Shown here one piece after another: positions 3,460 through 50,636 of a DNA stretch of 64,000 bases. The notes under the pieces were generated by a model. That model searched no databases. It was not told where the DNA came from and saw nothing but the letters and a program-made list of their open reading frames with translations. A program made the translations under genes and the position numbers. Every line of letters begins with the position of its first letter. Within the stretch, counting starts at the first letter, position 1. The DNA comes from Planctomycetota bacterium (GTDB lineage Bacteria > Planctomycetota > UBA1135 > UBA2386). The stretch spans positions 6,536-70,535 of the forward strand of contig JAEUHS010000016.1 in assembly GCA_016794035.1 (NCBI GenBank), read 5' to 3'.

Positions 3460-3558
3460 CGTCGGATCATCCTGAATCGGGACCGCCGTCGCCAGCGGTC
3501 CCGGGAACCCAGCGGCAGCCAACCCAAGTCTGACCCGGTCCGGACCGATAGGAGTCGC

Positions 3559-33264: not shown

Positions 33265-33278
<14 letters not shown>
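32058..33278 (+). CDS. DUF4350-like membrane protein
   Basis: This is the real 3' part of ORF 31362..33278. GTG 32058 has GGGAGG 5 nt upstream; the alternative GTG 32073 forms a GTGA overlap. N-terminal TM helix, LLVLAEP and DPDLIANHGL motifs, and a second TM helix. Confidence 0.6.
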
Positions 33279-34211
<933 letters not shown>

Positions 34212-34215
<4 letters not shown>

Positions 34216-35522
34216 TCCGGCCGACCGGACGCGCGTTGGGCGTGCTGGCGGCCGGCCTGCCGCTGGCGGCGCTGCCGACGCTCGCCGGCGCGCCGGGTGC
34301 CGCCGTCTACTGGCTGTCGTTCCTGATCGCGACGGGCGCCGCGCTCGCGCTCGAACTGCTGCGGCTGCCGCCGGCGCGTTCGATCGCGGTCGAGGTGGTG
34401 GCGCCGCCGGTGGTGCTGTTCGGAGCGCCGGCGTCGGTCGGGGTCACGGCGACCTCGACGCGCACCACCGACGTCGAGCTGCAGGTCGCCGCCGGCGGCG
34501 ACGTCGAGCCGCCGCCGCGCGCGTGGCTCGCGGTGCGGCCCGGCGGCGTGACCACGGCCGCGCTGCCGCTGGTGCCGCGGCGGCGCGGCACGATCACGCT
34601 GGTCGCCAGCCACGTGCGCTGGCGCGGTCCGCTCGGGCTGCTGTGGTGCGAGGTCGAACGGCCGCTCGGCGTGCGCGTGCCGGTGGTCACCGACGTCGAG
34701 TCGGTGCGCCAGCGCGCGCTGCGCATGGCCACCAACCGTGAGTTCCAGATCGGGCTCAAGGTCGAGCGCTACGTCGGCGACGGCAGCGAATTCGATTCGC
34801 TGCGCGAGTTCGTCACCGGCATGGACCGCCGCGCCGTCGACTGGAAGGCCTCGGCACGCCACCGCCAGGTGCTGTGCCGCGAGTTCCGCGCCGAGCGCGA
34901 CCACCCGGTGATGCTGTGCATCGACACCGGCCGCCTGATGGGCGAGCCGCTGGCCGGCATGCCGCGGCTCGACCATGCGATCCGGCTGGCGCTGCAGCTC
35001 GGCTACGTCTGCCTGCGCACCGGCGACCGCGTCGGCCTCTACGCGTTCGCCGACAAACCGCAGCAGGTGGTGCTGCCGCGCGCCGGCGTGCACGCGCTGC
35101 AGGCGATCCAGGGCCGCATGGCCGGACTCGACTACTCGACCGCGGAGACGAACTTCACGCTGGCGATGACCGAGCTGCTGCAGCAGCTGCGGCGTCGCAC
35201 GCTGGTGGTGCTGTTCACGGACTTCGTCGACAGCGTCACGGCCGAACTGATGCTGCGCAACGTGCGCTGGCTGCTGCGCCGGCACCTCTTGCTGTTCGTC
35301 GCGATGCAGGACCCGCTGCTCGGCGAGCTGTCGCGGCGCGAGCCGGCCAGCATCGAGGACCTGCACCGCGCGGTGACCGCCGAGGAGATCCGGCGCGAGC
35401 GTCTGCTGGTGCTCGAACGCATCCGCCGCAGCGGCGCCCAGGTGCTGGACGCGACCGTCGCCGAGCTCGGGCCGGGGTTGATCGACCGCTACCTGCAGGT
35501 CAAGCGCCGGGAGCTGCTGTGA
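34212..35522 (+). CDS. DUF58 domain protein (VWA-like partner of MoxR)
   Basis: This is the real 3' part of ORF 33909..35522. ATG 34212 overlaps the MoxR TGA (ATGA). Two N-terminal TM helices. GDGSEFDSLREFVTGMDRRAVDWKASAR is the typical DUF58 core. Confidence 0.85.
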
Positions 35523-36517
35523 GCGCCGCCGCGAACACGCCGTGGTCGGTGCAGTTCCGCCGCGAACGGCAGGCGGCGTGGATCGAGCTCGAGGACCTCG
35601 TCTCACGAGCCGAACGCAGCGGCCTGCAGAGCCTCGGCGCCGAGAAGATGGCGCGCCTGCCGGTGCTCTACCGCGCCGCGCTGTCGTCGCTGGGCGTCGC
35701 GCGCGCGTCGGTGCTCGATCAGGGACTGCTGCAGCACCTCGAGTCGCTGGTGGCGCGCGCCTACCTGGTGGTCTACTCGCCGAAGCGCCGGTTCGGCGAG
35801 GTGCTGGTGCCGTTCCTGGTGCACGGGTTCCCCGGCGCGGTGCGTTCGATCCGCTGGCACGTGCTGGCGTCGGGGCTGCTGCTGCTGCTCGGCTCGGCGA
35901 TCGCGTTCGCGATGGTACGCGCGGATCCGGAGCAGTACTACCTGTTCGTCGACTCCGGCATGGCGGCCGGTCGCGACCCGACGGCGTCGACGGAGGCGCT
36001 GCGCGCGACGCTGTTCAGCGGCCGTGACGACGACGGGCTGCTCACGTTCGCGACGTTCCTGTTCACGCACAATTCCTCGGTCGGCATCCTGACCTACGGC
36101 CTCGGCTTCGTGCTCGGCCTGCCGGTCGCGCTGCTGCTGCTCTACAACGGCATGATGCTCGGCGCGATGACCGCGCTGTTCCACGACCGCGGCCTCGCCG
36201 TCGAATGGTGGTCGTGGATCCTGCCGCACGGCGTCACCGAACTGCTGGCGATCGTGCTGTGCGGCGCCGCCGGACTCGCGGTGGGCCAGCAGGTGGTGTT
36301 CCCCGGCGTGCACGCGCGGCAGCACGGCCTGATGCTGGTCGGCCGGCGCATGGGCGCCGTCGTCGCCGGCAGCGTCGCGATGCTGCTGCTCGCCGGCCTG
36401 ATCGAAGGCGTGTTCCGGCAGATCGTGCACAGCGTGCCGGTGCGCTACACGCTGGCCGCGGTGTTCGCGCTGCTGTGGACGGCCTACCTGGCCCTGTCGG
36501 GGCGGAGCCGCGCGTGA
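35519..36517 (+). CDS. stage II sporulation protein M-like (SpoIIM/DUF95) membrane protein
   Basis: This is the real 3' part of ORF 34874..36517, with a GTGA overlap at 35519-35522. Motifs FLFTHNSSVGILTYGLGF...PHGVTELLAIVLCGAAG. Confidence 0.75.
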   Translation: MSAAANTPWSVQFRRERQAAWIELEDLVSRAERSGLQSLGAEKMARLPVLYRAALSSLGVARASVLDQGLLQHLESLVARAYLVVYSPKRRFGEVLVPFLVHGFPGAVRSIRWHVLASGLLLLLGSAIAFAMVRADPEQYYLFVDSGMAAGRDPTASTEALRATLFSGRDDDGLLTFATFLFTHNSSVGILTYGLGFVLGLPVALLLLYNGMMLGAMTALFHDRGLAVEWWSWILPHGVTELLAIVLCGAAGLAVGQQVVFPGVHARQHGLMLVGRRMGAVVAGSVAMLLLAGLIEGVFRQIVHSVPVRYTLAAVFALLWTAYLALSGRSRA

Positions 36518-37386
36518 GCACGGCCGCATGGACCGAGACCGTGACGACGCCGGAGGGCTTCGAGCTGCGCTTCGGTCGCGCCGCGGCCAGCGAGCGCCTG
36601 GTGGCGCTGGCGATCGACCTCGGCCTCGTGCTGCTCGCCGCGTTCGTGGCGGGCCTCGTGCTGTACTTCACGCTCGGCGTCGGCGCCGCGCTGCTGCTGT
36701 TGTTCCTGCTGCGGCAGGGCTACTTCGTCTGGTTCGAGACCCGCTGGAACGGCCGCACGCCCGGCAAGCGCCTGTTCCACCTGCGCGTCGTGCGCGCCGA
36801 CGGCGGGCCGCTGACCGTCGAGACGCTGCTGGCCCGCAACCTGACGCGCGAGGTCGAGCTGTTCCTGCCGCTGACCCTGCTCGCGAACCCCGACGTGTTG
36901 TTCGCGGACCACACCGGCTGGGTGCGGCTCGCGGCGTCGCTGTGGATCCTGCTGTTGCTGTTCTTCCCGCTGACGAATCCGCATCGGCTGCGCATCGGCG
37001 ACCTGCTGGCCGGCACCCGCGTGGTGGTGTCGCCGAGCGTGGCGCTGGTGCGCGACCTGGCCGATGCCCGAGCGGCGGCGGGCGTGCGCGAGCCGGAGCC
37101 GCTGTTCCGCTTCTCGCCGGAGATGCTGGCGATCTACGGCGAGCGCGAACTGACCGTGCTCGAGGAGGTGCTGCGCAAGGCGAAGCGCTCCGCCGATCCG
37201 GTGGTGGTCGAGGTGGCGCGCAGCATCTGCCGGCGCATCGGCTGGACCGACGAGGCCGCGATCGGCACCGACCACGCGAGGTTCCTGCGCGCGTTCTACG
37301 CCGCCCAGCGGCAGCACCTCGAGCAGCAGCTGCTGCTCGGCCGGCGGCGGCTGCGCAAGGGTCCGAAGGGGCGCCGCCCGGGCTGA
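36514..37386 (+). CDS. RDD family membrane protein
   Basis: This is the real 3' part of ORF 36205..37386, with a GTGA overlap at 36514-36517. Motifs ERLVALAIDLGLV, RTPGKRLFHLRVV and RIGDLLAGTRVV. Confidence 0.75.
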   Translation: MSTAAWTETVTTPEGFELRFGRAAASERLVALAIDLGLVLLAAFVAGLVLYFTLGVGAALLLLFLLRQGYFVWFETRWNGRTPGKRLFHLRVVRADGGPLTVETLLARNLTREVELFLPLTLLANPDVLFADHTGWVRLAASLWILLLLFFPLTNPHRLRIGDLLAGTRVVVSPSVALVRDLADARAAAGVREPEPLFRFSPEMLAIYGERELTVLEEVLRKAKRSADPVVVEVARSICRRIGWTDEAAIGTDHARFLRAFYAAQRQHLEQQLLLGRRRLRKGPKGRRPG

Positions 37387-37438: not shown

Positions 37439-38617
37439 ATGGTCGAGACCGCGGATCTGGTCGTCGTCGGCGGTGGCATCGTCGGCTGCTCGGTGGTGCA
37501 CCAGCTGGCGCGACTGCTGCCGAACACGACGCGCATCGTGCTGGTCGATCGTGGCCCGATCGCCGGCGCGACGTCGGGTTCGTCGATGGGGCACCTGATG
37601 GTGACGCCGGACGACGCCGCGGCCTACGCGCTGACGATCGCCAGCGTGCGGCTGTGGCGCGACCTGCAGCAGCGCCGCGGCGGCTTCCACTACCAGGCCA
37701 CTGGTGCGCTCTACCTGGCCGACACCGACGCGGACGTCGCGATGCTGCCGGTGCTGCGCGATCAGTTCGTCGCCCGCGGCGACTCCGCCGAGCTGCTCGA
37801 TGCGCGACAGCTGCGCGACCTCGAACCCGGCCTCGCGCCCGACCTGCAGGCGGCGACGTTCTATCCCGGGGACGCCGTCGTACTGCCGATGCTGGCCTGC
37901 GGCGTGATGCTGCGCGAGGCGCAGGCCGCGTGTCCCGGGCTGGTCGTGCGGCCCGACTGCGCGGTGCTCGGCTTCGACCGCGACGGCGACCGCCTCGCCG
38001 CGGTGCGCACCGCGCAGGGCACGATCGCGACCCGCACGGTCGTCAACGCGACCGGCGTCTGGGCGCCCGACCTCGCCGAACTGCTGGGCCAGCCCAGGCT
38101 GCCGATCTTCCCGCGCGCCGGCAACCTGGCGATCACCGGCCACCACGGCACGCCGGTGCGCACGCAGCTGCTGGAGGTGAGCTACTTGCGCTTCGCGCAC
38201 GGCGCGGCGGCCGTCGACCCGACGCGCACCGACGACCGCGGCGGCCACGCCGTCAACGTGCAGCCGCAGAGCAACGGCAGCTGCCTGATCGGCAGCACGC
38301 GCCAGTTCCGCGGCATGGACCGCACGCTGAACCGCGAACTGCTGCACCGCTCGCTGCTGCGCGCGCAGCGCTACGCGCCGGGCCTCGCCGCGGCGCCGAT
38401 CGTGCGCACCTGGGTCGGCCTGCGGCCCTACGCGATCGACAAGCAGCCGCTGATCGGGCCGTGGCCGCCGGTGCCGGGCCTGTGGATCGCGGCTGGACAC
38501 GAAGGCCTCGGCATCACGCTCGGACCGATCACCGGCCGCCTGCTGGCGCAGCAGATCGCCGGCGTGCCGTGCGACGTCGACCCGACTCCGTACCTGCCGG
38601 CGAGGTTCTGCGCATGA
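37439..38617 (+). CDS. FAD-dependent oxidoreductase, DAO family (HcnC / opine oxidase B / D-hydroxyproline dehydrogenase beta-like)
   Basis: ORF 37400..38617 trimmed to ATG 37439. DLVVVGGGIVGCSVVHQLA (a GxGxxG FAD fold) and AAGHEGLGITLGP. Confidence 0.82.
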   Translation: MVETADLVVVGGGIVGCSVVHQLARLLPNTTRIVLVDRGPIAGATSGSSMGHLMVTPDDAAAYALTIASVRLWRDLQQRRGGFHYQATGALYLADTDADVAMLPVLRDQFVARGDSAELLDARQLRDLEPGLAPDLQAATFYPGDAVVLPMLACGVMLREAQAACPGLVVRPDCAVLGFDRDGDRLAAVRTAQGTIATRTVVNATGVWAPDLAELLGQPRLPIFPRAGNLAITGHHGTPVRTQLLEVSYLRFAHGAAAVDPTRTDDRGGHAVNVQPQSNGSCLIGSTRQFRGMDRTLNRELLHRSLLRAQRYAPGLAAAPIVRTWVGLRPYAIDKQPLIGPWPPVPGLWIAAGHEGLGITLGPITGRLLAQQIAGVPCDVDPTPYLPARFCA

Positions 38618-38880
38618 CCGCCGACGCGCGCGGCGCGGTGACGTTCCGGTTCGGTGGCCGCGAGGTCCGCGGACGCGAGGGCGACACGATCGCGATGGCG
38701 CTGTGGGCCGCCGGCGAGCCGGTGCTGCGGCGCAGCTCCAGCCTCGGAGCGCCGCGCGGCTTGTTCTGCAACATGGGCGTCTGCTACGAGTGCCTCGTCG
38801 CCGTCGACGGCCGCACCGTGCGCGCGTGCACGACGGTCGTGCGCGAGGGCATGCAGGTCGAACCGGGAGGCCGGCCGTGA
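38614..38880 (+). CDS. small (2Fe-2S)-binding subunit (HcnA-like)
   Basis: This is the real 3' end of ORF 37654..38880, with an ATGA overlap at 38614-38617. FRFGGREVRGREGDTIAMALWAAG...GLFCNMGVCYECLVAVDGRTVRACTT. Confidence 0.8.
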   Translation: MTADARGAVTFRFGGREVRGREGDTIAMALWAAGEPVLRRSSSLGAPRGLFCNMGVCYECLVAVDGRTVRACTTVVREGMQVEPGGRP

Positions 38881-40262
38881 CCGACGCGCGGGTGCTCGAC
38901 GCCGACGTCGGCGTCGTCGGCGCGGGACCGGCGGGCATGGTGGCGTCCGCGCGACTCGCGGCGGCGGGGCTGTCGGTCGTGGTGCTCGACGAGGGCCAGC
39001 GCGCCGGCGGCCAGATCTTCCGGCAGCTGCCCGGCGGCGCCCCGCACCCGGCGCGCGGCGCCGAGCCGCCGAGCCACGCGCGCGGCGACACGCTGCTCGC
39101 CGCGTTCGCCGACCGCGACGTGACGCTGCGCCGCGGCGCGACCGTCTGGGACGCGCGACCGGGGCGGCTCTGGTTCGAACAGGACGGCGCCTCCTGGCTG
39201 CTGCGCTGCCGGCGCATCGTGCTGGCGCCGGGCGCCTACGACCGCTGCGTGCCGTTCCCGGGCTGGACGCTGCCCGGCGTCGTCACCGCCGGCGCGCTGC
39301 AGGTGATGGTGCGCGGTTTCGGCGTCGTCCCGGGCCAGCGGGCGCTGGTCGCCGGTTCGGGCCCGCTGTTGCTGCCGACCGTGACCGCGTTGACCGGTGC
39401 CGGCGTCGAGGTCGTCGCCGCGCTCGAAGCGAGTTCGCGCTGGCGCGCGCTGCGCGCGCTCGGCGGCGTGCTCGGCAACGGCGGCCGGCGGCGCGAGGCC
39501 GCCTGGTACGCGCGCCGGCTGCTCGGCGCCGGCGTGCGGCTGCGCTGGGGCTGGACCGTGTTCGCCTGCGAAGGCGACGGCCGCGTGCAGCGCGCCGTGA
39601 TCGGCAAGGTCGATCGTGACGGCCGGCCGCGGCGCGACACCGCGCGCACGATCGAGGTCGACGTCGTCGGCGCCGGCTTCGGTCTGGTGCCGTCGATCGA
39701 ACTCGGTCTGCGGCTAGGCTGCGCGGCGCGGTTCGTCGCCGCGCGCGGCGGCCATTGTCTGGTCGTCGACGGCGCGCAGCGCACCAGCGTCCCCGAGGTG
39801 CTCGCCGCCGGTGAGATCTGCGGCGTCGGCGGTGCCGAGGTGGCGATGGCGGAGGGGGACGTGGTCGCCGGCACGATCCTGCACGAACTGCGCGGCATCG
39901 CGCCACCGGCGGCGGCCGGCCGCCGCGCGGCGGCCGAACGCCGCGCCGCCGATCGGCTGCTGGCGGCGTTCGCCCCGCTGCCGGGCCTGCACGAACTGGC
40001 GACGCCGGCCACGATCGTCTGCCGCTGCGAGGACGTGACGCTGCAGCAGGCGCGCGACGCGGCGGCGCTGCACGGCACGTCGGCGCGCGCGATCAAGCTC
40101 GGCTGTCGCGCCGGCATGGGGCCGTGCCAGGCCCGCATCTGCGGCCCGTCGCTGCAGGCGCTGGCGGCGGGGCGGCCGGACCAGCCGATGGACCTGCCGG
40201 TCGTGCAGCTGCCGGTCAGACCCGTGACCACCGCGACGATCCTGGCCGCGCCGGCCGGCTGA
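38877..40262 (+). CDS. NAD(P)/FAD-dependent oxidoreductase subunit with BFD-like [2Fe-2S] motif (HcnB / opine oxidase A-like)
   Basis: This is the real 3' part of ORF 38703..40262, with a GTGA overlap at 38877-38880. VGVVGAGPAGMVASARLA, a second dinucleotide fold ALVAGSGPLLL, and CRCEDVT...CRAGMGPCQARIC. Confidence 0.8.
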   Translation: MTDARVLDADVGVVGAGPAGMVASARLAAAGLSVVVLDEGQRAGGQIFRQLPGGAPHPARGAEPPSHARGDTLLAAFADRDVTLRRGATVWDARPGRLWFEQDGASWLLRCRRIVLAPGAYDRCVPFPGWTLPGVVTAGALQVMVRGFGVVPGQRALVAGSGPLLLPTVTALTGAGVEVVAALEASSRWRALRALGGVLGNGGRRREAAWYARRLLGAGVRLRWGWTVFACEGDGRVQRAVIGKVDRDGRPRRDTARTIEVDVVGAGFGLVPSIELGLRLGCAARFVAARGGHCLVVDGAQRTSVPEVLAAGEICGVGGAEVAMAEGDVVAGTILHELRGIAPPAAAGRRAAAERRAADRLLAAFAPLPGLHELATPATIVCRCEDVTLQQARDAAALHGTSARAIKLGCRAGMGPCQARICGPSLQALAAGRPDQPMDLPVVQLPVRPVTTATILAAPAG

Positions 40263-40289
40263 GGTCCGCGGCCGTTATCATCCGCGGCG

Positions 40290-42140
40290 ATGCTGCTCGC
40301 CCTGCTCACGGCCCTGTTCCCCGTCGTCGCGCCGCAGGAGCCGCTGCGCATCGGCCTCTTGGTGCCCGACGTCGCCACCGCCGAGGACCTGCCGTTCGTG
40401 CGCGGCGCGCGCCGCGCCGAAGCCCTGTACAACAGGCAGGGCGGCGTCGACGGCGCGCCGATCGAACTGGTGTTGGCGGCGGCGGCGGCGCCGGCCGAGG
40501 TCGCGGCGGCGATCGCCGCACTGCAGGCGGCGAACGTCTGCGCGGTGGTGGCGCCGCCCGAGCCGAGCCTCGCGCCGATCGTGCAGCGGGTCGCGCAGGG
40601 CAAGCTGCCGTGCGTCGCGCTCGTGGCCTCGCCGGCCGCGATCGCCAGGGCGCTCGACGACGTCTGCAACCAGACGTTCTGCATGCAGACCATCGGCCTC
40701 GTGCGCGACGGCAGCCGCGACGCCCGCGCGCTGGCGAAGCTGCTCGGCAAGGACGGCCTCTCCGCCCCTGCCGAACTGGTCTGGGACGTCGACGTCGGCG
40801 TCAGCAGCAAGACGTTCGGCAAGCAGCTGGAGAAGCAGCGGCCGCACCTGCTGCTGGTCGACGCCGAGCCCGAGGCGGCGGCGAGGTTCCTGACCGACGT
40901 GCTCGCCGGCGATGCGATCCCGGTCGTGCTGTCGCCGCGCGCCACCGGCCCGGCGACGCGCGCGCTGCCGCGCACCCTGTTCGCGATCCTCGGCCTGTCG
41001 GCGGCCTCGGTCGCGGTGACGCCGTTCCGCGCCGACTACGAGTTCGAGTACGGCGACATGGGCTACGGCGCGGCCGAGGGCTACGAGGGCGTGCTCGCGG
41101 TCGCCCGTGCCGTCGACGCCGCCGACGCGCGCGATGCGGCGGCGGTGAAGAAGGCGCTCGCGACGGTCGTCGTCGACGGGGCGCGCGGCAGCACGGCGTT
41201 CGACAGGGCGCTGGACGGACTGGCGATGCCGTGCGCGGTGTGGCTGCTGCGGCAGGGTGCGATCGAGCACTACGCGCCGCCGGTGGTGCCGCGCAAGCCG
41301 GCGGTCGCGGCGACGGGCACGTCGGCGGCGACCGCGGCCGGGCCGCAGGTGGGCGACGGCCCGCAGCCGCAGATCGGCGTGCCGTTCGGCACGTGGCGCA
41401 CGCGCCAGTTCGTGTTCGAGGACGGCGCGCAGTGGGTGCTGTGCCAGTGGGCCGACGATCCGGGCTTCGACACCAGCGGCGAGGATCTGGCCCTGCTCGG
41501 CCTGTCGACCAGGGGCGCCGATGCGATCGCCGACCATCTGGTGCGCGAGGAGATCCTGGCGCGCGTGCTGGCGATCGTGTCGACCAAGTTCGGCCGCAAC
41601 GAGGACGGCTCCGGCGTGCCCGGCAAGAGCCTGCGCATCTCGTTCGCCGCGCACGTCGACAAGAAGGAGCGCGAGAAGAAGAAGCAGCGGCTGTGGCCGG
41701 CGCGGTTCGGCGGCGACCACACCGGCGCCGGCGGCGAGGCGTTCGGCACCTACTGCCGCGTCTACACCGCGTTCATCCGCCGCACGATCTTCCAGGCCCA
41801 CGCGCTGGTGCCGCCGCTCGAGTCGGCCGATCGCACCTACCTCGACGGCAGCTACGCGTTCGGCAGCGATCTGGCGCGCGACAAGCGCAGCGAACTGATC
41901 CGCGCGCTGATCAACGGCTACGCCGGCTCGATGGCGCTGACGCTGGCGCACGAGGTCGGTCATCTCGCCGGTCTCGACCACGTCACCGACGACCCGGTCG
42001 AGATCATGAACGTCGACGAGGGCGCGGGCATCGACTACCGCGACGCGCACTTCGGGCCCAACACCTGGGCGATCATGGAGCGCCGCTACGGGCTGACCGA
42101 GGCGCCGGGGCGCAAGGTGCCGCGCCCGATCGGTCGGTGA
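40290..42140 (+). CDS. secreted fusion protein: type-I periplasmic binding protein (LivJ-like) domain + C-terminal metzincin-type zinc metallopeptidase domain
   Basis: Signal peptide MLLALLTALFPVVAPQ. The N-terminal half is PBP1-like (LRIGLLVP...GARRAEALYNRQGGVDGAPIELV...GYGAAEGYEGV). The C-terminal half has HEVGHLAGLDH (HExxHxxGxxH) and a following Met (VEIMNV). Confidence 0.7.
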   Translation: MLLALLTALFPVVAPQEPLRIGLLVPDVATAEDLPFVRGARRAEALYNRQGGVDGAPIELVLAAAAAPAEVAAAIAALQAANVCAVVAPPEPSLAPIVQRVAQGKLPCVALVASPAAIARALDDVCNQTFCMQTIGLVRDGSRDARALAKLLGKDGLSAPAELVWDVDVGVSSKTFGKQLEKQRPHLLLVDAEPEAAARFLTDVLAGDAIPVVLSPRATGPATRALPRTLFAILGLSAASVAVTPFRADYEFEYGDMGYGAAEGYEGVLAVARAVDAADARDAAAVKKALATVVVDGARGSTAFDRALDGLAMPCAVWLLRQGAIEHYAPPVVPRKPAVAATGTSAATAAGPQVGDGPQPQIGVPFGTWRTRQFVFEDGAQWVLCQWADDPGFDTSGEDLALLGLSTRGADAIADHLVREEILARVLAIVSTKFGRNEDGSGVPGKSLRISFAAHVDKKEREKKKQRLWPARFGGDHTGAGGEAFGTYCRVYTAFIRRTIFQAHALVPPLESADRTYLDGSYAFGSDLARDKRSELIRALINGYAGSMALTLAHEVGHLAGLDHVTDDPVEIMNVDEGAGIDYRDAHFGPNTWAIMERRYGLTEAPGRKVPRPIGR

Positions 42141-42146
42141 ACCGGA

Positions 42147-42779
42147 TCAGGACACCAGCACGACCGGCAGGTGCGGCCGCAGGTCGAGGCGGCGGCCCTG
42201 CGCGTCGGCGAGGGTCAGTTCGAGCAGGTGTTCGCCGCCGTCACGGATCTGCAGCCCCGGCACCGACAGCTCGCGCAGCAGCGACATCGGCGCCAGGTCC
42301 GGCACCGTGACCGCGACCGCGGCGAGACCCCGGTCGGCCAGCGCGTGTGGCACGCCGAACGGCTGGAACGGCCGGTCGACCGCGAACAGCAGCGGTTCGC
42401 CGATCACGCCGCTGTTGCTCGCCATCGCGATCGACGTGCCGGCCGGCAGGTAGGCGGGCCGGTAGGGCCAGGCGACGAACGGGGTCGGCTCGCCCGCGGC
42501 ACCGGGTCGCAGGCAGACGCCGAACGGCGACGCGCGCGTGTGCCGCCAGCGCGCGCGCTCCTGCAGGCCGAGCGGCTTCACCATCACCTCGCGGGCGCCG
42601 GCCTCGTCGGCGAGCCACAGCAGTTCGAGGTAGGCGTCGCGGAAGCCGAAGCAGACGTTGGCCGTGCCCTGGCCGCGGTGTTCGCGCTGCACGCCGACCC
42701 GCAGGCCGGCGGCGGCCAGGTGCCGCTGCTCCGGAGCGTCCCGGTCACAGAAGACGAACACGTGGTCGACGACGGGCAT
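42147..42779 (-). CDS. glyoxalase-like/VOC superfamily domain protein
   Basis: MPVVDHVFVFCDRDAPEQRHLAAAGLRVGVQREHRGQGTANVCFGFRDAYLELLW resembles the Glyoxalase_3 type. Confidence 0.65.
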   Translation of the reverse strand: MPVVDHVFVFCDRDAPEQRHLAAAGLRVGVQREHRGQGTANVCFGFRDAYLELLWLADEAGAREVMVKPLGLQERARWRHTRASPFGVCLRPGAAGEPTPFVAWPYRPAYLPAGTSIAMASNSGVIGEPLLFAVDRPFQPFGVPHALADRGLAAVAVTVPDLAPMSLLRELSVPGLQIRDGGEHLLELTLADAQGRRLDLRPHLPVVLVS

Positions 42780-42853
42780 GAAATGGCAGCATGCGGCCGC
42801 AACGCCGGCAAAGGAAGTGTGCGCGGCCGGCCGCCGGCTACAGTGCCGGCCGC

Positions 42854-43672
42854 ATGAGCACTCAGACCGGAACCGCCAACATGGCCGTCTTCTGCGACTT
42901 CGAGAACGTCGCGCTCGGCGTCGCCGACGCCAAGTACGCCAAGTTCGACATCGAGAAGGTGCTGGACCGGCTGCTGCTGAAGGGCAGCATCGTGCTGAAG
43001 AAGGCCTACTGCGACTGGGACCGCTACAAGGCCTGGAAGGGCGCCATGCACGAGGCGGCGTTCGAGCTGATCGAGATCCCGCACCGGCGCATGTCCGGCA
43101 AGAACTCGGCCGACATCCGGCTCGTCGTCGACGCGCTCGACTTCTGCCACACCAAGGATCACGTCGACACGTTCGTGATCATCAGCGGCGACTCGGACTT
43201 CTCGCCGCTGGTCAGCAAGCTGCGTGAGAACAACAAGAAGGTGGTCGGCGTCGGCGTCAAGAACTCGAGCAGCGACCTGCTGATCGCCAATTGCGACGAG
43301 TTCATCTACTACGACGACCTCGTGCGCGAGAAGCCGGCGCGCAAGGCGCCGACGCAGCGGGCACCAGCTCGCAGTCCCGGCGAGAAGGGCACCGCCAAAC
43401 GGGCCGGCGACGACCGCACCAACGAGGCGCTCGACCTGATCCTGGAGACGATCGAGGCGCTGATGAACGAGCGCGGCACCGACGAGCGCATCTGGGGCTC
43501 GATGATCAAGCAGGCGCTCAAGCGCCGGAAGCCCGGCTTCAGCGAGGGGTACTACGGCTTCCGCTCCTTCAACGAACTGCTCGAAGAGGCGGAGGAGCGC
43601 GGCTACCTGTTGCTGGAGCCGTCGGAGAACTCGGGCGCCTACGTGGTGCGCTTGCCGTCGCCCGGCAAGTGA
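42854..43672 (+). CDS. NYN (LabA-like PIN-fold nuclease) domain protein with C-terminal OST-HTH/LOTUS domain
   Basis: ORF 42791..43672 trimmed to ATG 42854. NYN motifs MAVFCDFENV, KNSADIRLVVDALD and FVIISGDSDFSPLVSKLRENNKKVVGVG. LOTUS region WGSMIKQALKRRKPGFSEGYYGFRSFNELLEEAEERGYL. Confidence 0.82.
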   Translation: MSTQTGTANMAVFCDFENVALGVADAKYAKFDIEKVLDRLLLKGSIVLKKAYCDWDRYKAWKGAMHEAAFELIEIPHRRMSGKNSADIRLVVDALDFCHTKDHVDTFVIISGDSDFSPLVSKLRENNKKVVGVGVKNSSSDLLIANCDEFIYYDDLVREKPARKAPTQRAPARSPGEKGTAKRAGDDRTNEALDLILETIEALMNERGTDERIWGSMIKQALKRRKPGFSEGYYGFRSFNELLEEAEERGYLLLEPSENSGAYVVRLPSPGK

Positions 43673-43673
43673 G

Positions 43674-44762
43674 TCATCGGCCCGTGTCGGTGGCGGCCGG
43701 CGCCGTGCCGACCTCGACGTCGAACACGCTCTCGCCGTCACCGGCCGGCCACGCGACCAGTCGATGGCCGTCGAGCGCGAGCTGCCAGACGCCGCCCTCG
43801 GCGGCGCGCGCGAACAGCCGCCACGACGCGAGCTGACGGTTCTGGCCTTCCTCGACGATCGTCTCGGCGGCCGGCGCCGCCGGCGGCCGCGGCGGCGGCG
43901 CTGCGACCGGGCGCTGCAGCCGCTCGCGCAGGTCGATGCGCGCCGACTGCGGCACGCGCAGGGCCCGCACCGCGCGGCGGTGGGGGCCGTCGCGATGCAG
44001 CGCGCCGATGTCGAGCAGCAGCGCCTCGGCCGTGCCGATGCCGGTCAGTACGCCGGTCGCCAGGTCGAGCTCGACGCAGCCGTCTTCGCTGACGCCGATG
44101 CCGAGCCGCTGCCCGGTCGCTTCCAGCGCGGCGACCAGGCGGCCGGTGCGATGGCGTTCGAAGAAGTGCGAGTCGGTCATCACCCACGGCTCGAACAGCA
44201 TGCCGGGGCCGACGCGCGGGCCGCCGTCGCCGAGCGCGTCGCCGCTGCTGCCGCCGAGCAGCATGCGTTCGCCCATCATCGCGCAGCCGGCGCTCGAGCC
44301 GGCGATCACGCCGCCGCGTTGCAGCAGCCGCCGCATCGCCAGCCACTCCGGCGTGTCTCTGCCGCCGGGCCGGTACCGATCGGTGATGCGCTGCTGATCG
44401 CCGCCGGTGAAGAACAGGCCGGTCGCCCGGTCGATCGCGGCGACGGTCGCCTCGGTCGTGGTCTCGCGCCGCACGACTTCGCACGGCAGGCCGGGCCACC
44501 AGGTCTGCAGCGCCGCGACCTTGCCGGTCGCCATGTCGTCCTGGTCGCCGCTGGCAGCGGTGACGACGACGATGCGCGGCGGTCGGTCGCGGCCCGCCAG
44601 CGCCAGGAAGCGGTCGAACACCGGCTGCTGGTCGTCGTCGAGTCCGCCGCCGATCAACAGCAGCGCACCCTCGGCCGCGCGCGGGAAGCGCGGCCGCGCG
44701 GTCCGGCAGCTCGCGGCCAGCACGGCGGCCAGCAGCAGCACGACCAGGCGCACGCGGCTCAT
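43674..44762 (-). CDS. cyanophycinase-like serine peptidase (S51), lipoprotein, with ~80-aa C-terminal extension
   Basis: This is the real 3' part of ORF 43674..45764. ATG 44762 overlaps the upstream TGA (ATGA). Lipobox LAASC. Motifs LLLIGGGLDDD, FTGGDQQRI, IAGSSAGCAMMG (nucleophile Ser) and TDSHFFERHRTGRL. Confidence 0.85.
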   Translation of the reverse strand: MSRVRLVVLLLAAVLAASCRTARPRFPRAAEGALLLIGGGLDDDQQPVFDRFLALAGRDRPPRIVVVTAASGDQDDMATGKVAALQTWWPGLPCEVVRRETTTEATVAAIDRATGLFFTGGDQQRITDRYRPGGRDTPEWLAMRRLLQRGGVIAGSSAGCAMMGERMLLGGSSGDALGDGGPRVGPGMLFEPWVMTDSHFFERHRTGRLVAALEATGQRLGIGVSEDGCVELDLATGVLTGIGTAEALLLDIGALHRDGPHRRAVRALRVPQSARIDLRERLQRPVAAPPPRPPAAPAAETIVEEGQNRQLASWRLFARAAEGGVWQLALDGHRLVAWPAGDGESVFDVEVGTAPAATDTGR

Positions 44763-45757
44763 CGCTCGAAGATCGCGACCTCGAAGCGGCCGCGGCTGTC
44801 GGCCAGCGCGCGATACATGCCGTCGGAGTTGTAGACGGCGAACGCGTTGCCGCCGGCGTCGACCGCGACCACGCCGCCGTCGTCCCGGGCCAGCGTGTGC
44901 ATCACCACCGCGGTCGCGGCGGTGGCGAGGCTCTCCCCGGCGAACTCCATGCGCGCCGCGATCGTACGCGCGACGGTGTGGCGGAGGAACTGCTCGCCGG
45001 TGCCGGTGCCGCTGACCGCGGCGTAGCCGTTGGCGTAGGTGCCTGCGCCGACGATCGGCGAGTCGCCGACGCGGCCGAACTGCTTGCCGGTCAGACCGCC
45101 GGTGCTGGTCGCCGCCGCGAGCCGACCCTGCCGATCGAGCGCGACGCAGCCGACGGTGCCGGAGTCGGCGCCGGGGACCTTGCGTTCGCGTTCTTGCAGC
45201 ACCTCGTCGAGCATGCGCCGCCGCGCCGGGGTCGTGAACCACTCGTTGGGCACGCGTTCGACCCCCATCGCGGTCGCGAACTGCTCGGCGCCGTCGCCCA
45301 TCAGCAGCACGTGCCGCGTGCGCTGCATCACGAGGCGCGCCAACGACACCGGGTTCTTGACGGTCTTCACGCCGGCGACGGCGCCGCACGCCATCGTGCT
45401 GCCGTCCATGATCGCGGCGTCGAGTTCGTGGCCGCCGTTCTCGTTGCACGCCGCGCCCTTGCCGGCGTTGAACAGCGGGTCCGCCTCGAACTGGCGCACG
45501 ACCGCCTCGCAGACGTCGAGCGCGGCGTCGCCGCGCGCCAGGCGGTCGCGGCCGACGGTCAGCGCGCGCTCCATCGCGTCGCGATAGGCCTGCAGGTCGG
45601 CGGCCGGCGCGTCGCGCTCGAGCGTGCCAGCACCGCCGTGGATCGCGATCGCCCACGCGCCCGGCGGCGCCAGCGGCGGTGGGTGGGAGCCGCCGGTGGA
45701 CACACAGCCGCCGGCGAACGGCAGCCAGAGGACGACGAGGCAGATCGGCGCGCGCAT
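44759..45757 (-). CDS. iaaA: isoaspartyl peptidase / L-asparaginase (Ntn hydrolase), lipoprotein
   Basis: This is the real 3' end of ORF 44759..50605, starting at ATG 45757. Lipobox PFAGGC. Motifs IAIHGGAG, NAGKGA, GTVGCVALD (autoprocessing Thr), TSTGG and VSGTGTGE. Confidence 0.88.
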   Translation of the reverse strand: MRAPICLVVLWLPFAGGCVSTGGSHPPPLAPPGAWAIAIHGGAGTLERDAPAADLQAYRDAMERALTVGRDRLARGDAALDVCEAVVRQFEADPLFNAGKGAACNENGGHELDAAIMDGSTMACGAVAGVKTVKNPVSLARLVMQRTRHVLLMGDGAEQFATAMGVERVPNEWFTTPARRRMLDEVLQERERKVPGADSGTVGCVALDRQGRLAAATSTGGLTGKQFGRVGDSPIVGAGTYANGYAAVSGTGTGEQFLRHTVARTIAARMEFAGESLATAATAVVMHTLARDDGGVVAVDAGGNAFAVYNSDGMYRALADSRGRFEVAIFER

Positions 45758-45801
45758 GGCGCATGGTGTAGCGGCGCGGCGGGTGCGATGCGATCCCGAG
45801 G

Positions 45802-48800
45802 TCACGTCGGGCGCGGGTCGACCTGCAGCAGGTCGTTGACGGCCGCCAGCAGGGCGCCGATCGCGAACGGCTTCTCCAGCAGGCGCAGCGGGCCGTCGGC
45901 GCCGGTGCCGAGGTCGCCGGCCTCGCCGAAGAAGCCCGACACGAACAGCACCGGCAGCCCCGGCCGCTCCGCGGTCAACGCCGCCGCCAGTTCGCGGCCG
46001 CCCAGGCCCGGCATCACGACGTCGGTGATCAGCAGGTCGATCGTGCCGCGATGCCGGCGCGCGACGGCGAGCGCGCTCTGGCCATCGCTGGCGAGCAGCA
46101 CGGTGTGGCCGGCGCGCTGCAGCGCGCGCTGCACGAGGCCGCGCACCGGCGCCTCGTCCTCGACCAGCAGGATCGTCGCGGCCGCCGTCGGCGTCGGTGC
46201 CGCCGGCGCGACGGGCTCCGCCCCGGCGGCGCCCGTCGTCGACGGCAGCCGGATCCAGGCGGTCGTGCCCACGCCCGGTTCGCTCTCGAGCCACGCGTCG
46301 CCGCCGCTCTGCCGGGCGATGCCGTACACGGTCGACAGGCCGAGCCCGGTGCCCTTGCCCGGTCCCTTGGTGGTGAAGAACGGGTCGAACGCGTGCGAGC
46401 GCACGGTCTCGTCCATGCCGGTGCCGGTGTCCCGCACCCACAGCAGCGCGTGCGGCGCCGAGTTCTCGGTGCCGGGGACGTTGGCGACGCCGATCGTCAG
46501 CGTGCCGCCGGCCGGCATCGCGTCGCGCGCATTGACGACCAGGTTCAGCAGCACCTGTTCCATCTGGCTGCGATCGACGCGCACCGGCACCGGCCCGCCG
46601 GGCCGTTCCTGGCGCAGCTCGATGCTGGCGCCGATCAGGCGCTGCAGCAGCTCGGCCAGTTCGTCGACGATGGCGGCGAGGTCCATGACGTGGGGCGCCA
46701 GCAGCTGCTGGCGGCTGAAGGCCAGCAGCTGGCGCGTCAGCCCAGCGGCCCGCGACGCTGCATCGAGGATGCCGCGGGTGTCGGCGCGTCGCGCGTCGTC
46801 GGACGGCAGCGACTCGTCCAGCGCTTCCGCGTAGCCGACCACCGCGGTCAGCAGGTTGTTGAAGTCGTGCGCGACGCCGCCGGCGAGCTTGCCGACGGCC
46901 TCCATCTTCTGCGCCTGCCGCAGCTGCTCCTCGAGCGACTTGCGCGCGGTGATGTCGGCGACCACGCCGACGTAGGCACCGCCGCCGTCGAGGCCGCGCA
47001 CCAGCGTGCTCGACACCAGCGCCCAGAACCGCGACCCGTCCCGGCGGTGCAGCTGCATCTCGTCGGCCTCGTGCTGTCCCCGGTCGGTGCACAGCGAGGC
47101 GAGGTCGGCCAGATGTGCGGCCGGCAGGTCTGCGTCCGTCGCGACGAGGCGCAGCATCTCCTCCGGCGAGTCGTAGCCGAACAGCTCGGCGAAGCGTTGA
47201 TTGGCATAGGTCAGGCCGTGACCGTGCACGCAGCGGAACAGGCCCTCGGCGACGTGGCGCTGGATCGACACCAGCAGCGACTCCCGTTGTTCGCGTTCGA
47301 TGACGACGCCCGTGAGCACCGCGGCCCGTTCGACCAGTTCGATCTGCGCGGCGGTCGGCTGCCGGGGTTCGCGGTGGTAGATCGCGAAGGTGCCGACGGG
47401 TCGGCCGGCCGGCGAACGGATCGGCACCGACCAGCACGCGCGCAGACCATGGCTGGCGGCCGCTTCCCGCGCGATGTCCCAGGCCGGGTCGCGGGCGATG
47501 TCCGCGGTGATCACCGTGCGATTGTCGTGGGCCGCCGTGCCGCAGGTCCCGACCGCGGGACCGATCTCGATGCCCTCGATCGCCGCGCTGTAGCCCGACG
47601 GCAGCGAGGGAGCGCAGGCGAGGTGCAGCCGGCGGCCCTGCAGCAGCAGGATCGAGCCCATGCCGCGGCCCATCTGGCCCTCGATGCCCCGCACGATCTC
47701 GGTGAACACGTCCTGCACCGGCCGCGCCGTGGCGACGAGTTCGAGGATGCGGGCCTGCCAGGCCAGCAGCCGCTCGATCGCGGCGCGCTCGCTGACGTCG
47801 CGCACGATGCCCAGCACCTCGTCGTCGGCGAGACGGATGAAACGCGCCTCGCGCACCCGGTGGTGATGCGGCGGACTCAGCGGATACTCGATCGCACCGG
47901 AGCGACCATGGGTGCAGGCGTCGTCGATGGCGCGCAGCATGCGGTCGGCGACGTCGGCCGGCACCAGCGCCTCGAGCGGCTGGTCGATCAGGCGCTCGCG
48001 CGGCGTCGGCAGCGGCACGCCTTCGGGCACCAGCGCGTCGAGCACGGTGCCGTCGCGGCGCATGCGGTAGACGACGTCCGGCAGCACGTTCAACAACGCC
48101 GCGCGCAGTCCCTCGCTGCGGAACCAGCCCTGTGCGTTCGCCTGCCGCTCGGCGAACAGGCTGCCGAACACCAGCGGCACCGCCAGCAGCATCAGTTCGA
48201 AGATCTGGATCGCGGTGTGGCGCTCGCGCAGCGACGCCAGCTGGAACGGGCCGATGGCGTGGCTCGACGCGACGGTGACCGTGACGGCCGCGAGGAACGA
48301 CGCGGTCGTGGTGCCGCGCAGGCCGAAGCGCCACGCGACCGCCAGCAGCAGCGGCACCAGCCCATAGAGCATCACGATCGAGGTCGCGTTGGCGGACAGC
48401 TGCGTCAGCACGCCCCACGCCATGCCCGATATCACCGCCATCAGCAGCGCACCCTCGAGCAGCGGTCGCGGCCGCAGGCGCGGGCGCCCGCCGGCGGACC
48501 AGGTCAGCACCAGTGGCACGACCGCCAGCACCCCGAGCGCGTTCATGCGCCACCAGCCGTAGTAGCCCGACGCGCGCGGGCCGACGCCCACCACCGTGCA
48601 GAAGATCGTCGACGTCACGACGCTGGCGAGCGGCGCGACCGCCGCCGTGAGCAGCAGCGCCAGCACGTCGCGCAGCCGGGCGAACGCCGCCTGGCAGCCA
48701 CACGCGCGCAGCACCAGCACGCCGACCACCGCCTCGGCGGCGCTGCCGAGCCCGGCGGTCACCGCCGCCGCGGGCAGATAGTCGTTCCACAGCCGCTGCG

Positions 48801-48990
48801 CGACGACCGCGGCGAAGACGACGGCCGCCGCCGGCAGGCCCAACAGCCAGGTGCCCGCGACCGCGACGCCGCTCGGCAGCCAGACGATGGCGTGGGTGAC
48901 GGCCGGTCCGTCGAGGGCGTGCAGCAGTCCTGCCGCGACGAACGCGAGCAGGAACGCCACGTAGCGCAGGGTTCGTGTCGCCGCGGGCAT
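45802..48990 (-). CDS. hybrid sensor histidine kinase/response regulator (MASE1-like membrane domain, PAS, GAF, PAS, HisKA, HATPase_c, REC)
   Basis: About 8 N-terminal TM helices ([17 protein letters not shown]). H-box [11 protein letters not shown]. ATPase motifs [16 protein letters not shown] and GTGLGLS. Receiver motifs [17 protein letters not shown] and LEKPF. Confidence 0.9.
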
Positions 48991-49028
48991 CGCCGCCCGA
49001 GGGTAGCGAGCGCCGCCGGGCGACGCAT

Positions 49029-49047
49029 GGGGGGGGGCGCCCCCGGG
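49029..49047. repeat. G/C-only element GGGGGGGGGCGCCCCCGGG (G9 run plus the 12-nt palindrome GGGGGCGCCCCC)
   Basis: Read directly. It lies between the Kelch-1 stop (49048) and the HK start (48990). Confidence 0.9.
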
Positions 49048-50397
49048 TCAGAGTCCGAGCGTGGTCACGACCGCGTTCGAGACGGTGGCGCCGGCCGGGT
49101 TGACGCCCGGATCGAGACACAGCGCCTGCGCGTAGATGCGATCGCCGACGGTGCCGATGGTCGGGTTGTAGGTGAACGACGCCATGCCACCGGCGCTGGT
49201 GACGTTGACGAACGCGTCGGGGAAGGCGTAGCCGGCGCAGCCCGGCAGGCCGACGAAGTCGAGCGCGAGGCCCGGCAACGCGGACAGGCCCAGCACGAAT
49301 GCCACGGCCTGCGGCGCGGTGTTCAGGTCGGTGAGCACCAGCCGGTAGTCGCCGCCGATGCGACCGGCGTCGGGCATGCTCAGCGCCGGCACGCCGTTCG
49401 AACCGGGGCAGCCGACACCGTAGGCACGCCAGCGGGCGCCGAACTCCCAGGTCTGGTTGGAGAGCGTGTTCGGACTCTGCGTGAAGCCGCCGAACTTCAC
49501 CACCTGTCGCCGCGTCGGCAGGAATGCGAGCGAATGGTCGCGCGCCGGCTGCGTCGCCGTCGGCTGCTGCGTCCACGCGGTGCCGTCGAACTCCCACGTG
49601 TCGGCGAAGATCGTGGTCGCATCCTGACCGCCGGTCAGCACGCAGACGCCGCGCAGGTCGTCGTAGACCATCTTCGCGGCGTTGCGCGGCGACGGCCTGG
49701 CGCCGGCGATCGGCACCGGGGTCCAGTTGACGCCGTCGTAGGTCCAGGTCGCGTCGAACAGCGTGCTGCTGAACGCGCCGCCGAACAGCACCGTCTTGCC
49801 GAGCGCCGCGTGGTAGCACATCGCCGGCCGGTCCAGCGCGCCGGGGTTCGCCGCGGTCGTGATCTGCACCCAGTTGACGCCGTCGTACTCCCAGGTCTTG
49901 TTCGACGGGATGCCGACGCCGGCGCCGACGCCGCCGTAGACGACGACGCGCGCGCGGCCGATGTCGTAGCAGATGCCGTTGCGGAACAGACCGCCGGGGT
50001 TCGTGGCGGGCGTTCGCAGGCTCCAGTCGACGCCGTCGAACTCCCAGGTCTCGCTGCTGGCGCCGCCGGCGGAGCCGCCGTAGAGCACGACCACGCCGCG
50101 CAGCAGGTCGTAGGTCATCTCGACCTCGATGCGGCCGCTCGGCGACGTCGCCGGGGCGAGCTGCGTCCAGTCGACGCCGTCGTAGACCCAGGTCTCGTTG
50201 CTCGGCGCCGGGTTGCCGGTGCCGCCGAACAGCAGCGCGCCGCCGACGCCGGGCGCGAACGTCATCGCCGCGCCGCGCCGCGCCGTCGGCGAGGTCGCGG
50301 GGGACTGTTGTTCCCATTGCGTGCGCGCCAGCAGCGGGGCCGCCGGGGCGGCGACCGAGACGGAGAGCAGGAACAGGGTGGTTGCGGTTCGAGGCAT
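49048..50397 (-). CDS. secreted Kelch-repeat beta-propeller protein with unassigned Cys-containing C-terminal module (paralog 1)
   Basis: ORF 49048..50508 trimmed to ATG 50397, with signal peptide MPRTATTLFLLSVSVAAPAAPLLA. Six blades with the recurring pattern hhhFGG...(E/D)TWE(F/Y)DG..W. The C-terminal 124 aa contain GCPGSNGVPAL, GLPGCAGYAF and QALCLDPGVNPAG. Confidence 0.85.
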   Translation of the reverse strand: MPRTATTLFLLSVSVAAPAAPLLARTQWEQQSPATSPTARRGAAMTFAPGVGGALLFGGTGNPAPSNETWVYDGVDWTQLAPATSPSGRIEVEMTYDLLRGVVVLYGGSAGGASSETWEFDGVDWSLRTPATNPGGLFRNGICYDIGRARVVVYGGVGAGVGIPSNKTWEYDGVNWVQITTAANPGALDRPAMCYHAALGKTVLFGGAFSSTLFDATWTYDGVNWTPVPIAGARPSPRNAAKMVYDDLRGVCVLTGGQDATTIFADTWEFDGTAWTQQPTATQPARDHSLAFLPTRRQVVKFGGFTQSPNTLSNQTWEFGARWRAYGVGCPGSNGVPALSMPDAGRIGGDYRLVLTDLNTAPQAVAFVLGLSALPGLALDFVGLPGCAGYAFPDAFVNVTSAGGMASFTYNPTIGTVGDRIYAQALCLDPGVNPAGATVSNAVVTTLGL

Positions 50398-50636
50398 CGG
50401 CGTCGGGTCGGCTGTGGGCACGATGCCACAGGCGACATTGGCGCGCGATCGGCCGGCGGAATCCGCGGAAACGGGCCGGCCCGTCGCCGTTGCGTTTCGT
50501 GGTTGCACTCCGTCCGTGAGGACCCGGATCCCGAGGCATGGAACGTCGTTGCGACCCAGCCTCTCGCCGCTGAGCTGCGGCGCGCAGCGCCGTCAGCTCC
50601 AGCATGGGCGGGCGTAGCCGCCACCCCGCACGTTCC

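Follow-up and report, generated by a model that had tools for sequence, protein, structure and literature searches.

Metzincins are normally zymogens with N-terminal prodomains, and the swapping of accessory domains is normal for secreted proteases; among those of bacteria, Big_5, PPC, LysM, TIG, BNR and HEAT domains are the usual accessory domains. Venus-flytrap domains, which have the type-I periplasmic-binding-protein (PBP) fold, commonly relay ligand binding to fused outputs, as in ANF receptors, ionotropic glutamate receptors (iGluRs) and the AmiC-AmiR system. Both parts are familiar kinds, and the gene described here joins them. It lies in a stretch of 64,000 nucleotides from a Planctomycetota bacterium (GenBank assembly GCA_016794035.1, contig JAEUHS010000016.1), referred to below as the window, and encodes a protein of 616 amino acids (aa) in which a type-I PBP domain precedes a module assigned to the metzincin clan of zinc metallopeptidases (Table 1). 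The reading preferred here, held with moderate confidence, is that the fusion protein is an exported metzincin zinc endopeptidase in which a repurposed type-I PBP fold acts as a non-catalytic recognition or regulatory domain.

A first-pass annotation made from the sequence alone had drawn attention to this open reading frame (ORF), which was found exactly as placed, with an ATG start. The peptides quoted from it are all present in the translation (LRIGLLVP at aa 19-26, GGVDGAPIELV at 51-61 and GYGAAEGYEGV at 258-268), as are the zinc-site and Met-turn sequences (aa 554-564 and 570-575). The start codon is fixed, since an in-frame TGA belonging to the upstream gene (40260-40262) is followed by zero start codons before the ATG. 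The GC content of the window is 69-77%, with approximately 74% at the fusion gene, and spurious long ORFs are consequently abundant in it. Judged from its homologues, the plus-strand frame is a genuine gene and no high-GC artefact: among 5.8 billion proteins searched there were fifty matches of 47-100% identity, most of them about 600 aa long and full-length, one (an NCBI protein from a Planctomycetes metagenome-assembled genome (MAG)) being identical to the fusion protein. A 590-aa antisense ORF opposite the fusion gene (40278-42050, minus strand) is attributed to the GC content. The names given to the homologues at their sources are ‘hypothetical protein’, ‘ABC transporter substrate-binding protein’ and ‘ABC-type branched-chain amino acid transport system substrate-binding protein’. 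Forty-four homologues made up both the close-family alignment and the input to AlphaFold2 (AF2). The resulting full-length model has a mean predicted local distance difference test score (pLDDT) of 88.5 and a predicted template modelling score (pTM) of 0.87, and consists of two folded domains with a disordered linker between them.

Table 1. Position in the window of the fusion gene, the parts of its predicted product and the upstream dehydrogenase genes.
Feature	Position	Strand	Evidence
Fusion gene, 616-aa PBP-metzincin protein	40290..42140	+	ATG-initiated ORF, AF2 model, 50 homologues
Short hydrophobic N-terminus MLLALLTALFPVVAPQE, probable export signal, then conserved PQEP motif	40290..40340	+	alignment of homologues
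Type-I PBP (Venus-flytrap) domain, aa 18-337	40341..41300	+	Pfam, Foldseek, HHalign
Interdomain linker, Ala/Thr/Gly-rich, disordered, aa 338-355	41301..41354	+	pLDDT < 50
Coil segment G-P-Q-x-x-I-G-x-P-F-G-T-W-R-T-R-Q-F before the catalytic core, aa 356-375	41355..41414	+	alignment, model
Metzincin-clan zinc metallopeptidase module, aa 376-605	41415..42104	+	broad profile against PDB, model, motif
Zinc-binding consensus HEVGHLAGLDH (H554, E555, H558, G561, H564)	41949..41981	+	translation, alignment
Candidate Met-turn VEIMNV (M573, 9 residues past the third His, 8 intervening)	41997..42014	+	translation, alignment
Flavoprotein dehydrogenase trio: DAO (37439-38617), Fer2_4 (38614-38880), Pyr_redox_2 + Fer2_BFD (38877-40262)	37439..40262	+	Pfam

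Membership of the C-terminal half in the metzincin clan is well supported by its sequence. Residues H554, E555, H558 and H564 of the zinc-binding consensus are invariant in all forty-four close homologues, as are M573, N574 and V575 of the candidate Met-turn, and the region of the zinc motif is the most conserved block of twenty-five residues in the protein (0.92). Mean column conservation lies at 0.7-0.9 in the C-terminal half, against 0.55-0.65 in the PBP half. The pattern HExGHxxGxxH is fully invariant in a broad alignment of twenty-six sequences that reaches 21% identity to the window protein, and the Met is conserved in at least 90% of these. Between the third His and the Met there are eight intervening residues in seventy-nine representatives and seven in fifteen.

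Searches of the PDB with the single sequence and with a profile of the close clade gave sub-threshold matches at the level of the motif only, and significance was reached only after the close-family profile had been widened with distant relatives that carry no PBP domain (profile A3, twenty-six sequences). All sixty PDB matches listed for A3 are metzincins. The best is a snake-venom metalloproteinase (PDB accession no. 1kug, E = 4.4e-6), which is matched over approximately 100 residues (profile positions 123-224); others are ADAMTS-5 (1.5e-5), matrix metalloproteinase (MMP)-2 (3e-4) and karilysin, fragilysin and archaemetzincin (approximately 1e-3). Two of the distant relatives, P0126 (24.7 bits) and P0139 (28.8 bits), pass the Pfam matrixin cutoff of 24. 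The conserved motif and downstream Met, together with these profile matches, uphold the metzincin domain that had been proposed from the signature. In the full-length AF2 model DSSP assigns beta-strands at residues 381-387, 450-453, 468-473, 482-485 and 488-491 and alpha-helices at 412-433, 528-559 (containing HExxH) and 590-600, besides extra inserted helices. The metzincin plan comprises a beta-sheet of five strands, the edge strand being antiparallel, with a backing helix A, an active-site helix B and, past the Met-turn, a C-terminal helix C; the predicted order beta1-alphaA-beta2-beta3-beta4-beta5-alphaB(HExxH)-Met-alphaC fits the succession of these elements, with inserted helices. From its sequence the fusion protein may be inferred to possess zinc endopeptidase activity.

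The N-terminal half was identified as a type-I PBP fold by three methods. Pfam Peripla_BP_6 (PF13458) matches with 46.1 bits against a cutoff of 31.7 and is the sole Pfam domain of the fusion protein above threshold. All fifty PDB matches listed by Foldseek for the full model are type-I PBP folds (best E = 3.9e-13, probability 1.00), among them LivJ/LivK of Brucella and E. coli, AmiC, UrtA and the amino-terminal domains of glutamate receptors (4n0q, 1z15, 2liv, 1qnl, 8tg1); as only PBP matches occur among these fifty, that search is uninformative on the protease half. HHalign of the family against E. coli LivJ, the reference sequence of which was checked to be identical to PDB 1z15, gave a probability of 92.9% (E = 3.7e-7, 280 columns). 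The fold anticipated by the label ‘LivJ-type’ in the first-pass annotation is therefore present, but the features by which LivJ binds its ligand are largely gone. In the LivJ/LivK structures the residues in contact with the alpha-amino acid are Tyr18, Ser79, Thr102, Tyr202 and Glu226 (LivJ numbering). In the fusion family the columns at the first four hold S/A/G, P/A, variable residues and E/D, respectively, while the equivalent of Glu226 is ambiguous, being either D208 (D/E in 40 of 44 homologues, in a region of low HHalign confidence) or, by strand register, P216/R217. Of these five contacts at least four are thus lost. A segment of eighteen residues (LivJ 108-125), which includes a core strand, is also deleted from the family.

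In thirteen distinct neighbourhoods of the fusion gene no ABC permease or ATPase gene was seen. There is none in the flanks of the fusion gene in the window, nor among the called genes within 7-8 kb at loci L001-L004 and L015-L017; L007 and L009-L013 were screened only by tblastn with the window’s own genes, so that such genes are not strictly excluded there. Taken with the loss of the LivJ contacts, this argues that the PBP half is not a transporter component, and the best reading is that the fold no longer serves an ABC importer. The view implied by the NCBI/JGI names, that the protein merely extends a normal substrate-binding protein of an ABC transporter at its C-terminus, has in its favour that Peripla_BP_6 is the only Pfam domain above threshold, but is extremely improbable, as no transporter gene was seen near the copies examined, the contacts and a core strand are missing, and the ‘extension’ is a domain of 230 aa with an invariant metzincin site and with higher conservation than the PBP half.

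The fusion protein is probably exported, as judged from its short hydrophobic N-terminus and the signal peptides of deeper-clade relatives. The hydrophobic N-terminus is found in all forty-four aligned homologues, with P15, Q16 and P18 conserved after it, and the relatives in the deeper clade possess classical signal peptides. The interdomain linker, rich in indels, is the least conserved part of the alignment. It is followed by a segment that is mainly coil in the AF2 model, in which P358, G363 and F374 are invariant among the forty-four homologues and P365, F366, G367, W369, R370, T371 and R372 are at least 90% conserved. This segment is restricted to PBP-fused members and is absent from relatives fused to Big_5 or PPC, where the domain starts at beta-1; a function as an interface, in autoinhibition or in processing is conceivable for it. 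The pTM of the two-domain chain suggests that the PBP and catalytic domains are packed in a fixed arrangement.

A profile of residues 352-616 recovered only 119 clusters (E <= 0.001) from 1.84 billion representative proteins. The C-terminal half matches no Pfam or NCBIfam family above threshold (E >= 0.02 for the NCBIfam metzincin models), and the architecture, which might have turned out to be a common and already annotated one, is neither. The clusters form two groups. One consists of PBP-fused proteins, comprising the clade of the window protein and a deeper clade, of which twelve members were scanned and eight score above the Peripla_BP_6 cutoff; in the other, the same metzincin module follows Big_5, PPC, LysM, TIG, BNR or HEAT domains. 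BLAST no longer detects any similarity between the two PBP-fused clades in their PBP halves (E = 1.1), while their protease halves are clearly homologous. A count of PBP-fused proteins with a narrow N-terminal hidden Markov model (23 of 119) was rejected as too low to serve as a frequency, Pfam showing an intermediate clade to be PBP-fused as well. All relatives with a named organism and all ten GTDB loci are from Planctomycetota MAGs, and the catalytic-domain family is small and has so far been seen only in this phylum. Within the second group, P0133/P0177 (2573 aa, from a Planctomycetales MAG) has approximately twenty-five tandem IPT/TIG-like repeats and a C-terminal metzincin module with an expanded Cys-rich insertion between HExxH and the Met.

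On the preferred reading the protein would be exported, to the periplasm or out of the cell, and its C-terminal module would act as a zinc endopeptidase. The PBP fold occupies the slot in which sister proteins carry Big_5, PPC, TIG or LysM modules and is for this reason most likely the recognition/targeting or regulatory domain of the protease, where it might dock a substrate or a small ligand beside the active site. Simple recognition or targeting is ranked first among these roles, and gating or latency second.

A number of observations weigh against this reading. G561 of the zinc-binding consensus is Gly in thirty-six of the forty-four close homologues and Ser, Thr or Ala in the other eight. 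All Pfam peptidase models are sub-threshold for the window protein, and their matches are confined to the motif (Peptidase_M10 (PF00413), 15.8 bits against 24; Reprolysin_3, 14.1 against 22.4; M54, 11.9). Foldseek with the isolated C-terminal domain is non-significant (best E = 0.25, TM-score approximately 0.4), sixteen of the fifty matches listed being metzincins (MMP-3, MMP-12 and profragilysin-3 among them); the domain modelled alone, from an alignment of twenty sequences against forty-four for the full length, has a pLDDT of 76.7. The candidate export signal is short and has no basic n-region, and the conserved Pro-Gln comes after it, so that export is no more than probable. Finally, zinc-ligand His residues are replaced in three deep PBP-fused proteins, P0096, P0102 and P0103 (SKEIGHLAGLGVD, AKELGLMAGLSLE and AKELGQLAGLALD, respectively), which keep the scaffold and are apparent pseudoproteases within the family. 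Of the two that were scanned with Pfam, P0103 passes Peripla_BP_6 and P0096 has no match.

A ligand-gated or latent protease is a rather unlikely alternative to simple recognition. The PBP domain would here be an allosteric switch or a prodomain-like lid, relieved by flytrap closure or by cleavage of the linker and release of the PBP domain. Such a role would accord with the general behaviour of Venus-flytrap domains and, the PBP domain being N-terminal, with that of metzincin prodomains. The disordered linker, followed by the strongly conserved PFGTWRTRQF motif specific to PBP-fused members, and the fixed interdomain contact implied by the pTM point in the same direction, as does a loss of confidence at residues 481-488, a putative edge-strand region, when the C-terminal domain is modelled alone; the last may, however, reflect the shallower alignment. 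Against this alternative, there is no nameable ligand site in the PBP half, the checked cleft positions being variable in addition to the lost LivJ contacts, and there is no cysteine-switch motif. The rapid evolution of the PBP half would also be unusual for a precise allosteric sensor.

Another role is suggested by the genes upstream. The first-pass annotation described an amino-acid/opine-type dehydrogenase of three components directly before the fusion gene, and Pfam identified all three (DAO, Fer2_4 and Pyr_redox_2 with Fer2_BFD). This composition is that of HcnABC-type, D-hydroxyproline and opine dehydrogenases. The gap of 27 bp described between the trio and the fusion gene was found, but the hairpin reported within it (CCGCGG...CCGCGG) is no stabler than shuffled sequence and was rejected (z = +1.27; of 200 shuffled sequences, 187 are equally or more stable). 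The gap contains zero promoter-like or terminator-like sites, and since no terminator-like site separates them, the trio, whose genes overlap or abut, and the fusion gene are probably co-transcribed in the window. Across thirteen distinct loci the trio is upstream of the fusion gene in six (the window, L001, L004 (= L006), L005, L008 and L017), with gaps of approximately 22-27 bp in the window, L001, L004 and L005, 194 bp in L017 and approximately 1.4 kb in L008. It is absent in the other seven (L002/L003, L007, L009-L013 and L015/L016), and as a family-wide partner it was rejected on this count. The position of the gene, from which a hint of peptide or amino-acid-derivative acquisition had been drawn, thus cannot define the function of the family; the dehydrogenase link is lineage-specific.

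A catabolic pathway in which peptides or amino acids released by the protease, or a compound captured by the PBP domain, are oxidised by the DAO/Fer2_4/Pyr_redox_2 enzyme would be compatible with the preferred reading, and is considered fairly improbable. The fusion gene immediately follows the trio, in the same orientation, in the window, L001, L004 and L005, and lies downstream of it in L017 and L008 as well; L001 and L017 have, divergent from the trio, a gene of the Peptidase_M19 (membrane dipeptidase) family, and Peptidase_S51 and Asparaginase_2 genes lie near the fusion gene in the window. More than half of the loci lack the trio, however, its synteny tracks phylogeny and may be due to common descent and not to function, and the dehydrogenase appears to be cytoplasmic whereas the fusion protein is apparently exported. 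It is also quite unlikely that the PBP domain is a Venus-flytrap sensor through which a ligand turns the fused metzincin on or off allosterically, with PFGTWRTRQF as an autoinhibitory or transmission element and a ligand possibly related, in the lineage of the window, to the substrate of the dehydrogenase. A finely tuned sensor is disfavoured because the PBP halves of the two clades can no longer be detected by BLAST where the protease halves are homologous.

That the fusion protein is a pseudoprotease, a non-catalytic binding or scaffold protein with HExxH kept for structure or metal binding only, is very improbable. The deep PBP-fused sub-clade with replaced His ligands (KEIGH...V, KELGQ...A, KELGL...L) indicates that the scaffold is selectable and can persist without catalysis. 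This does not extend to the clade of the window protein, where the three His residues, the general base E555 and M573 are invariant in all forty-four homologues and lie in the most conserved block.

The M19 genes mentioned above are at 3379-4644 (minus strand) in L001 and 2562-3911 (minus strand) in L017, and the window has none. The Peptidase_S51 (cyanophycinase/dipeptidase-E family, 35.7 bits) and Asparaginase_2 (isoaspartyl peptidase/asparaginase, 335.6 bits) genes are adjacent to each other at 43674-45790 (minus strand) of the window; synteny of the S51 gene extends to L004 and L005, and in L004 the adjacent Asparaginase_2 gene is present too. This pairing suggests the breakdown of beta-aspartyl or cyanophycin-type dipeptides. 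Other very long antisense or alternative-frame ORFs occur in the window, for example one of 1948 aa at 44759-50605, the 5' part of which is not a real gene, the Asparaginase_2 protein being encoded by its 3' end only. Translations of such ORFs are rich in Arg, Ala, Gly and Pro, as is typical for DNA of 73-75% GC.

A Glyoxalase_3 gene (42147-42779, minus strand) is convergent with the fusion gene, with 6 bp between the stop codons, and next to it is a gene for an NYN-domain ribonuclease-like protein with a weak OST-HTH/LOTUS domain (42791-43672, plus strand). A hybrid sensor kinase of 1062 aa (45802-48990, minus strand; MASE1, PAS, GAF, PAS, HisKA, HATPase_c and receiver domains) is encoded in the window and also in L004. 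Directly upstream of the trio is a cluster encoding a MoxR-type AAA_3 ATPase, a DUF58/VWA protein, a SpoIIM-like membrane protein and an RDD-family protein (33265-37386, plus strand), which is syntenic in L004/L006. Loci L002/L003, L015 and L016 have a second, likewise recurrent neighbourhood, the elements of which differ per locus: a gene for an extracytoplasmic function (ECF) sigma factor, accompanied by a zf-HC2 anti-sigma factor in L002/L003, a PQQ_2 beta-propeller (L002/L003 and L016), a Rax2/DUF5122-like protein of approximately 850 aa (L002/L003 and L015) and DUF4097 (L002/L003 and L016).

Dozens of Planctomycetota proteins labelled ‘ABC transporter substrate-binding protein’ or ‘hypothetical’ carry an intact and more conserved predicted metzincin domain that is missed by Pfam and NCBIfam, and the module merits a model of its own and possibly a MEROPS family. 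The recruitment of a transporter-type binding fold as the accessory domain of a predicted secreted protease is a clean case both of swapped accessory domains and of a binding protein that has left transport behind. Should the PBP domain still bind a small molecule, it would provide a rare instance of an extracellular protease controlled or targeted directly by a small molecule, and a ligand-gated extracytoplasmic protease, if such it is, would add ‘peptidase’ to the output classes of PBP/Venus-flytrap domains. Planctomycetota are major degraders of complex polymers, and their secreted proteases consequently bear on the turnover of carbon and nitrogen. A PBP-metzincin fusion, or a peptidase as the output of a Venus-flytrap domain, was not found in the literature searched; the papers that came up for Planctomycetes with metzincins are unrelated as far as their titles and abstracts tell.

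Among described peptidases, the matrixins (MEROPS M10; MMPs and bacterial karilysin) share with the fusion protein the HExGHxxGxxH motif and a modular construction with a non-catalytic recognition domain, such as the hemopexin domain of MMPs. Across the family no Pfam peptidase model matches better, or much better, than Peptidase_M10, the cutoff of which two relatives pass, and MMP-3 and MMP-12 are among the Foldseek matches listed, non-significantly (E >= 0.25). The family stretch H-x-x-D-P-x-x-x-M resembles the MMP sequence HSxDPxALM, and the spacing between the third His and the Met, with eight intervening residues, is close to the seven of human MMPs. Unlike matrixins, the window protein is well below the Pfam cutoff and has Val565 after the third His (at least 90% conserved; Asp in most relatives) rather than Ser. 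It has no cysteine-switch prodomain of the type PRCGxPD (PRCG is absent from the 616-aa translation) and no recognisable pattern of MMP-type structural zinc or calcium ligands. Its domain is of approximately 230 aa with several inserted helices, against approximately 160 aa, and the accessory domain is an N-terminal PBP.

The adamalysins/reprolysins and ADAMTS enzymes (M12B) give the best profile-to-PDB matches, with the alignment extending approximately 60 residues upstream of the zinc motif, and most relatives in the family have, like them, an Asp after the third His. They differ in Met spacing (twelve intervening residues in the aligned snake-venom enzyme, against eight in the fusion family) and in their disulfide pattern, which the fusion protein lacks; Reprolysin_3 and Reprolysin_5 are both sub-threshold, and the window protein has Val in place of the Asp. 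As Val565 is not the Ser of matrixins, a cysteine switch is lacking, and a matrixin-like Met spacing is combined with best matches to adamalysins, the C-terminal module is, on these sequence characters, an uncurated metzincin family that is neither matrixin nor reprolysin. Fragilysin and B. fragilis metalloprotease II (M10C) are likewise bacterial metzincins with a large N-terminal domain before the catalytic domain. PDB entry 4on1 (TLAHEIGHLLGAEHV), in which Val follows the third His, is the best PDB match of the single-sequence and close-clade-profile searches, non-significantly (E >= 0.03), and profragilysin-3 is the top Foldseek match of the isolated domain, again non-significantly (E >= 0.25). 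The fragilysin prodomain, however, is not a PBP fold.

With regard to the N-terminal half, the LivJ/LivK cluster-B substrate-binding proteins (Peripla_BP_6) have the same two-lobed type-I fold, and the fusion protein keeps the signature F-x-x-G-A...N..GGV.G..IEL and passes their Pfam cutoff. It departs from them in having neither the conserved ligand contacts nor the equivalent of LivJ 108-125, no partner transporter, and an enzyme domain to which it is fused. In the Venus-flytrap output fusions, namely ANF/guanylate-cyclase receptors, the amino-terminal domains of iGluRs, AmiC-AmiR and PBP-linked sensor kinases, a type-I PBP fold has likewise been reused outside transport and coupled, covalently or stably, to an effector, and GluK2, AtGLR3.4 and AmiC are among the Foldseek matches listed. 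The known outputs of these systems are kinases, cyclases, channels and antiterminators, whereas the fusion protein described here carries a predicted peptidase module.

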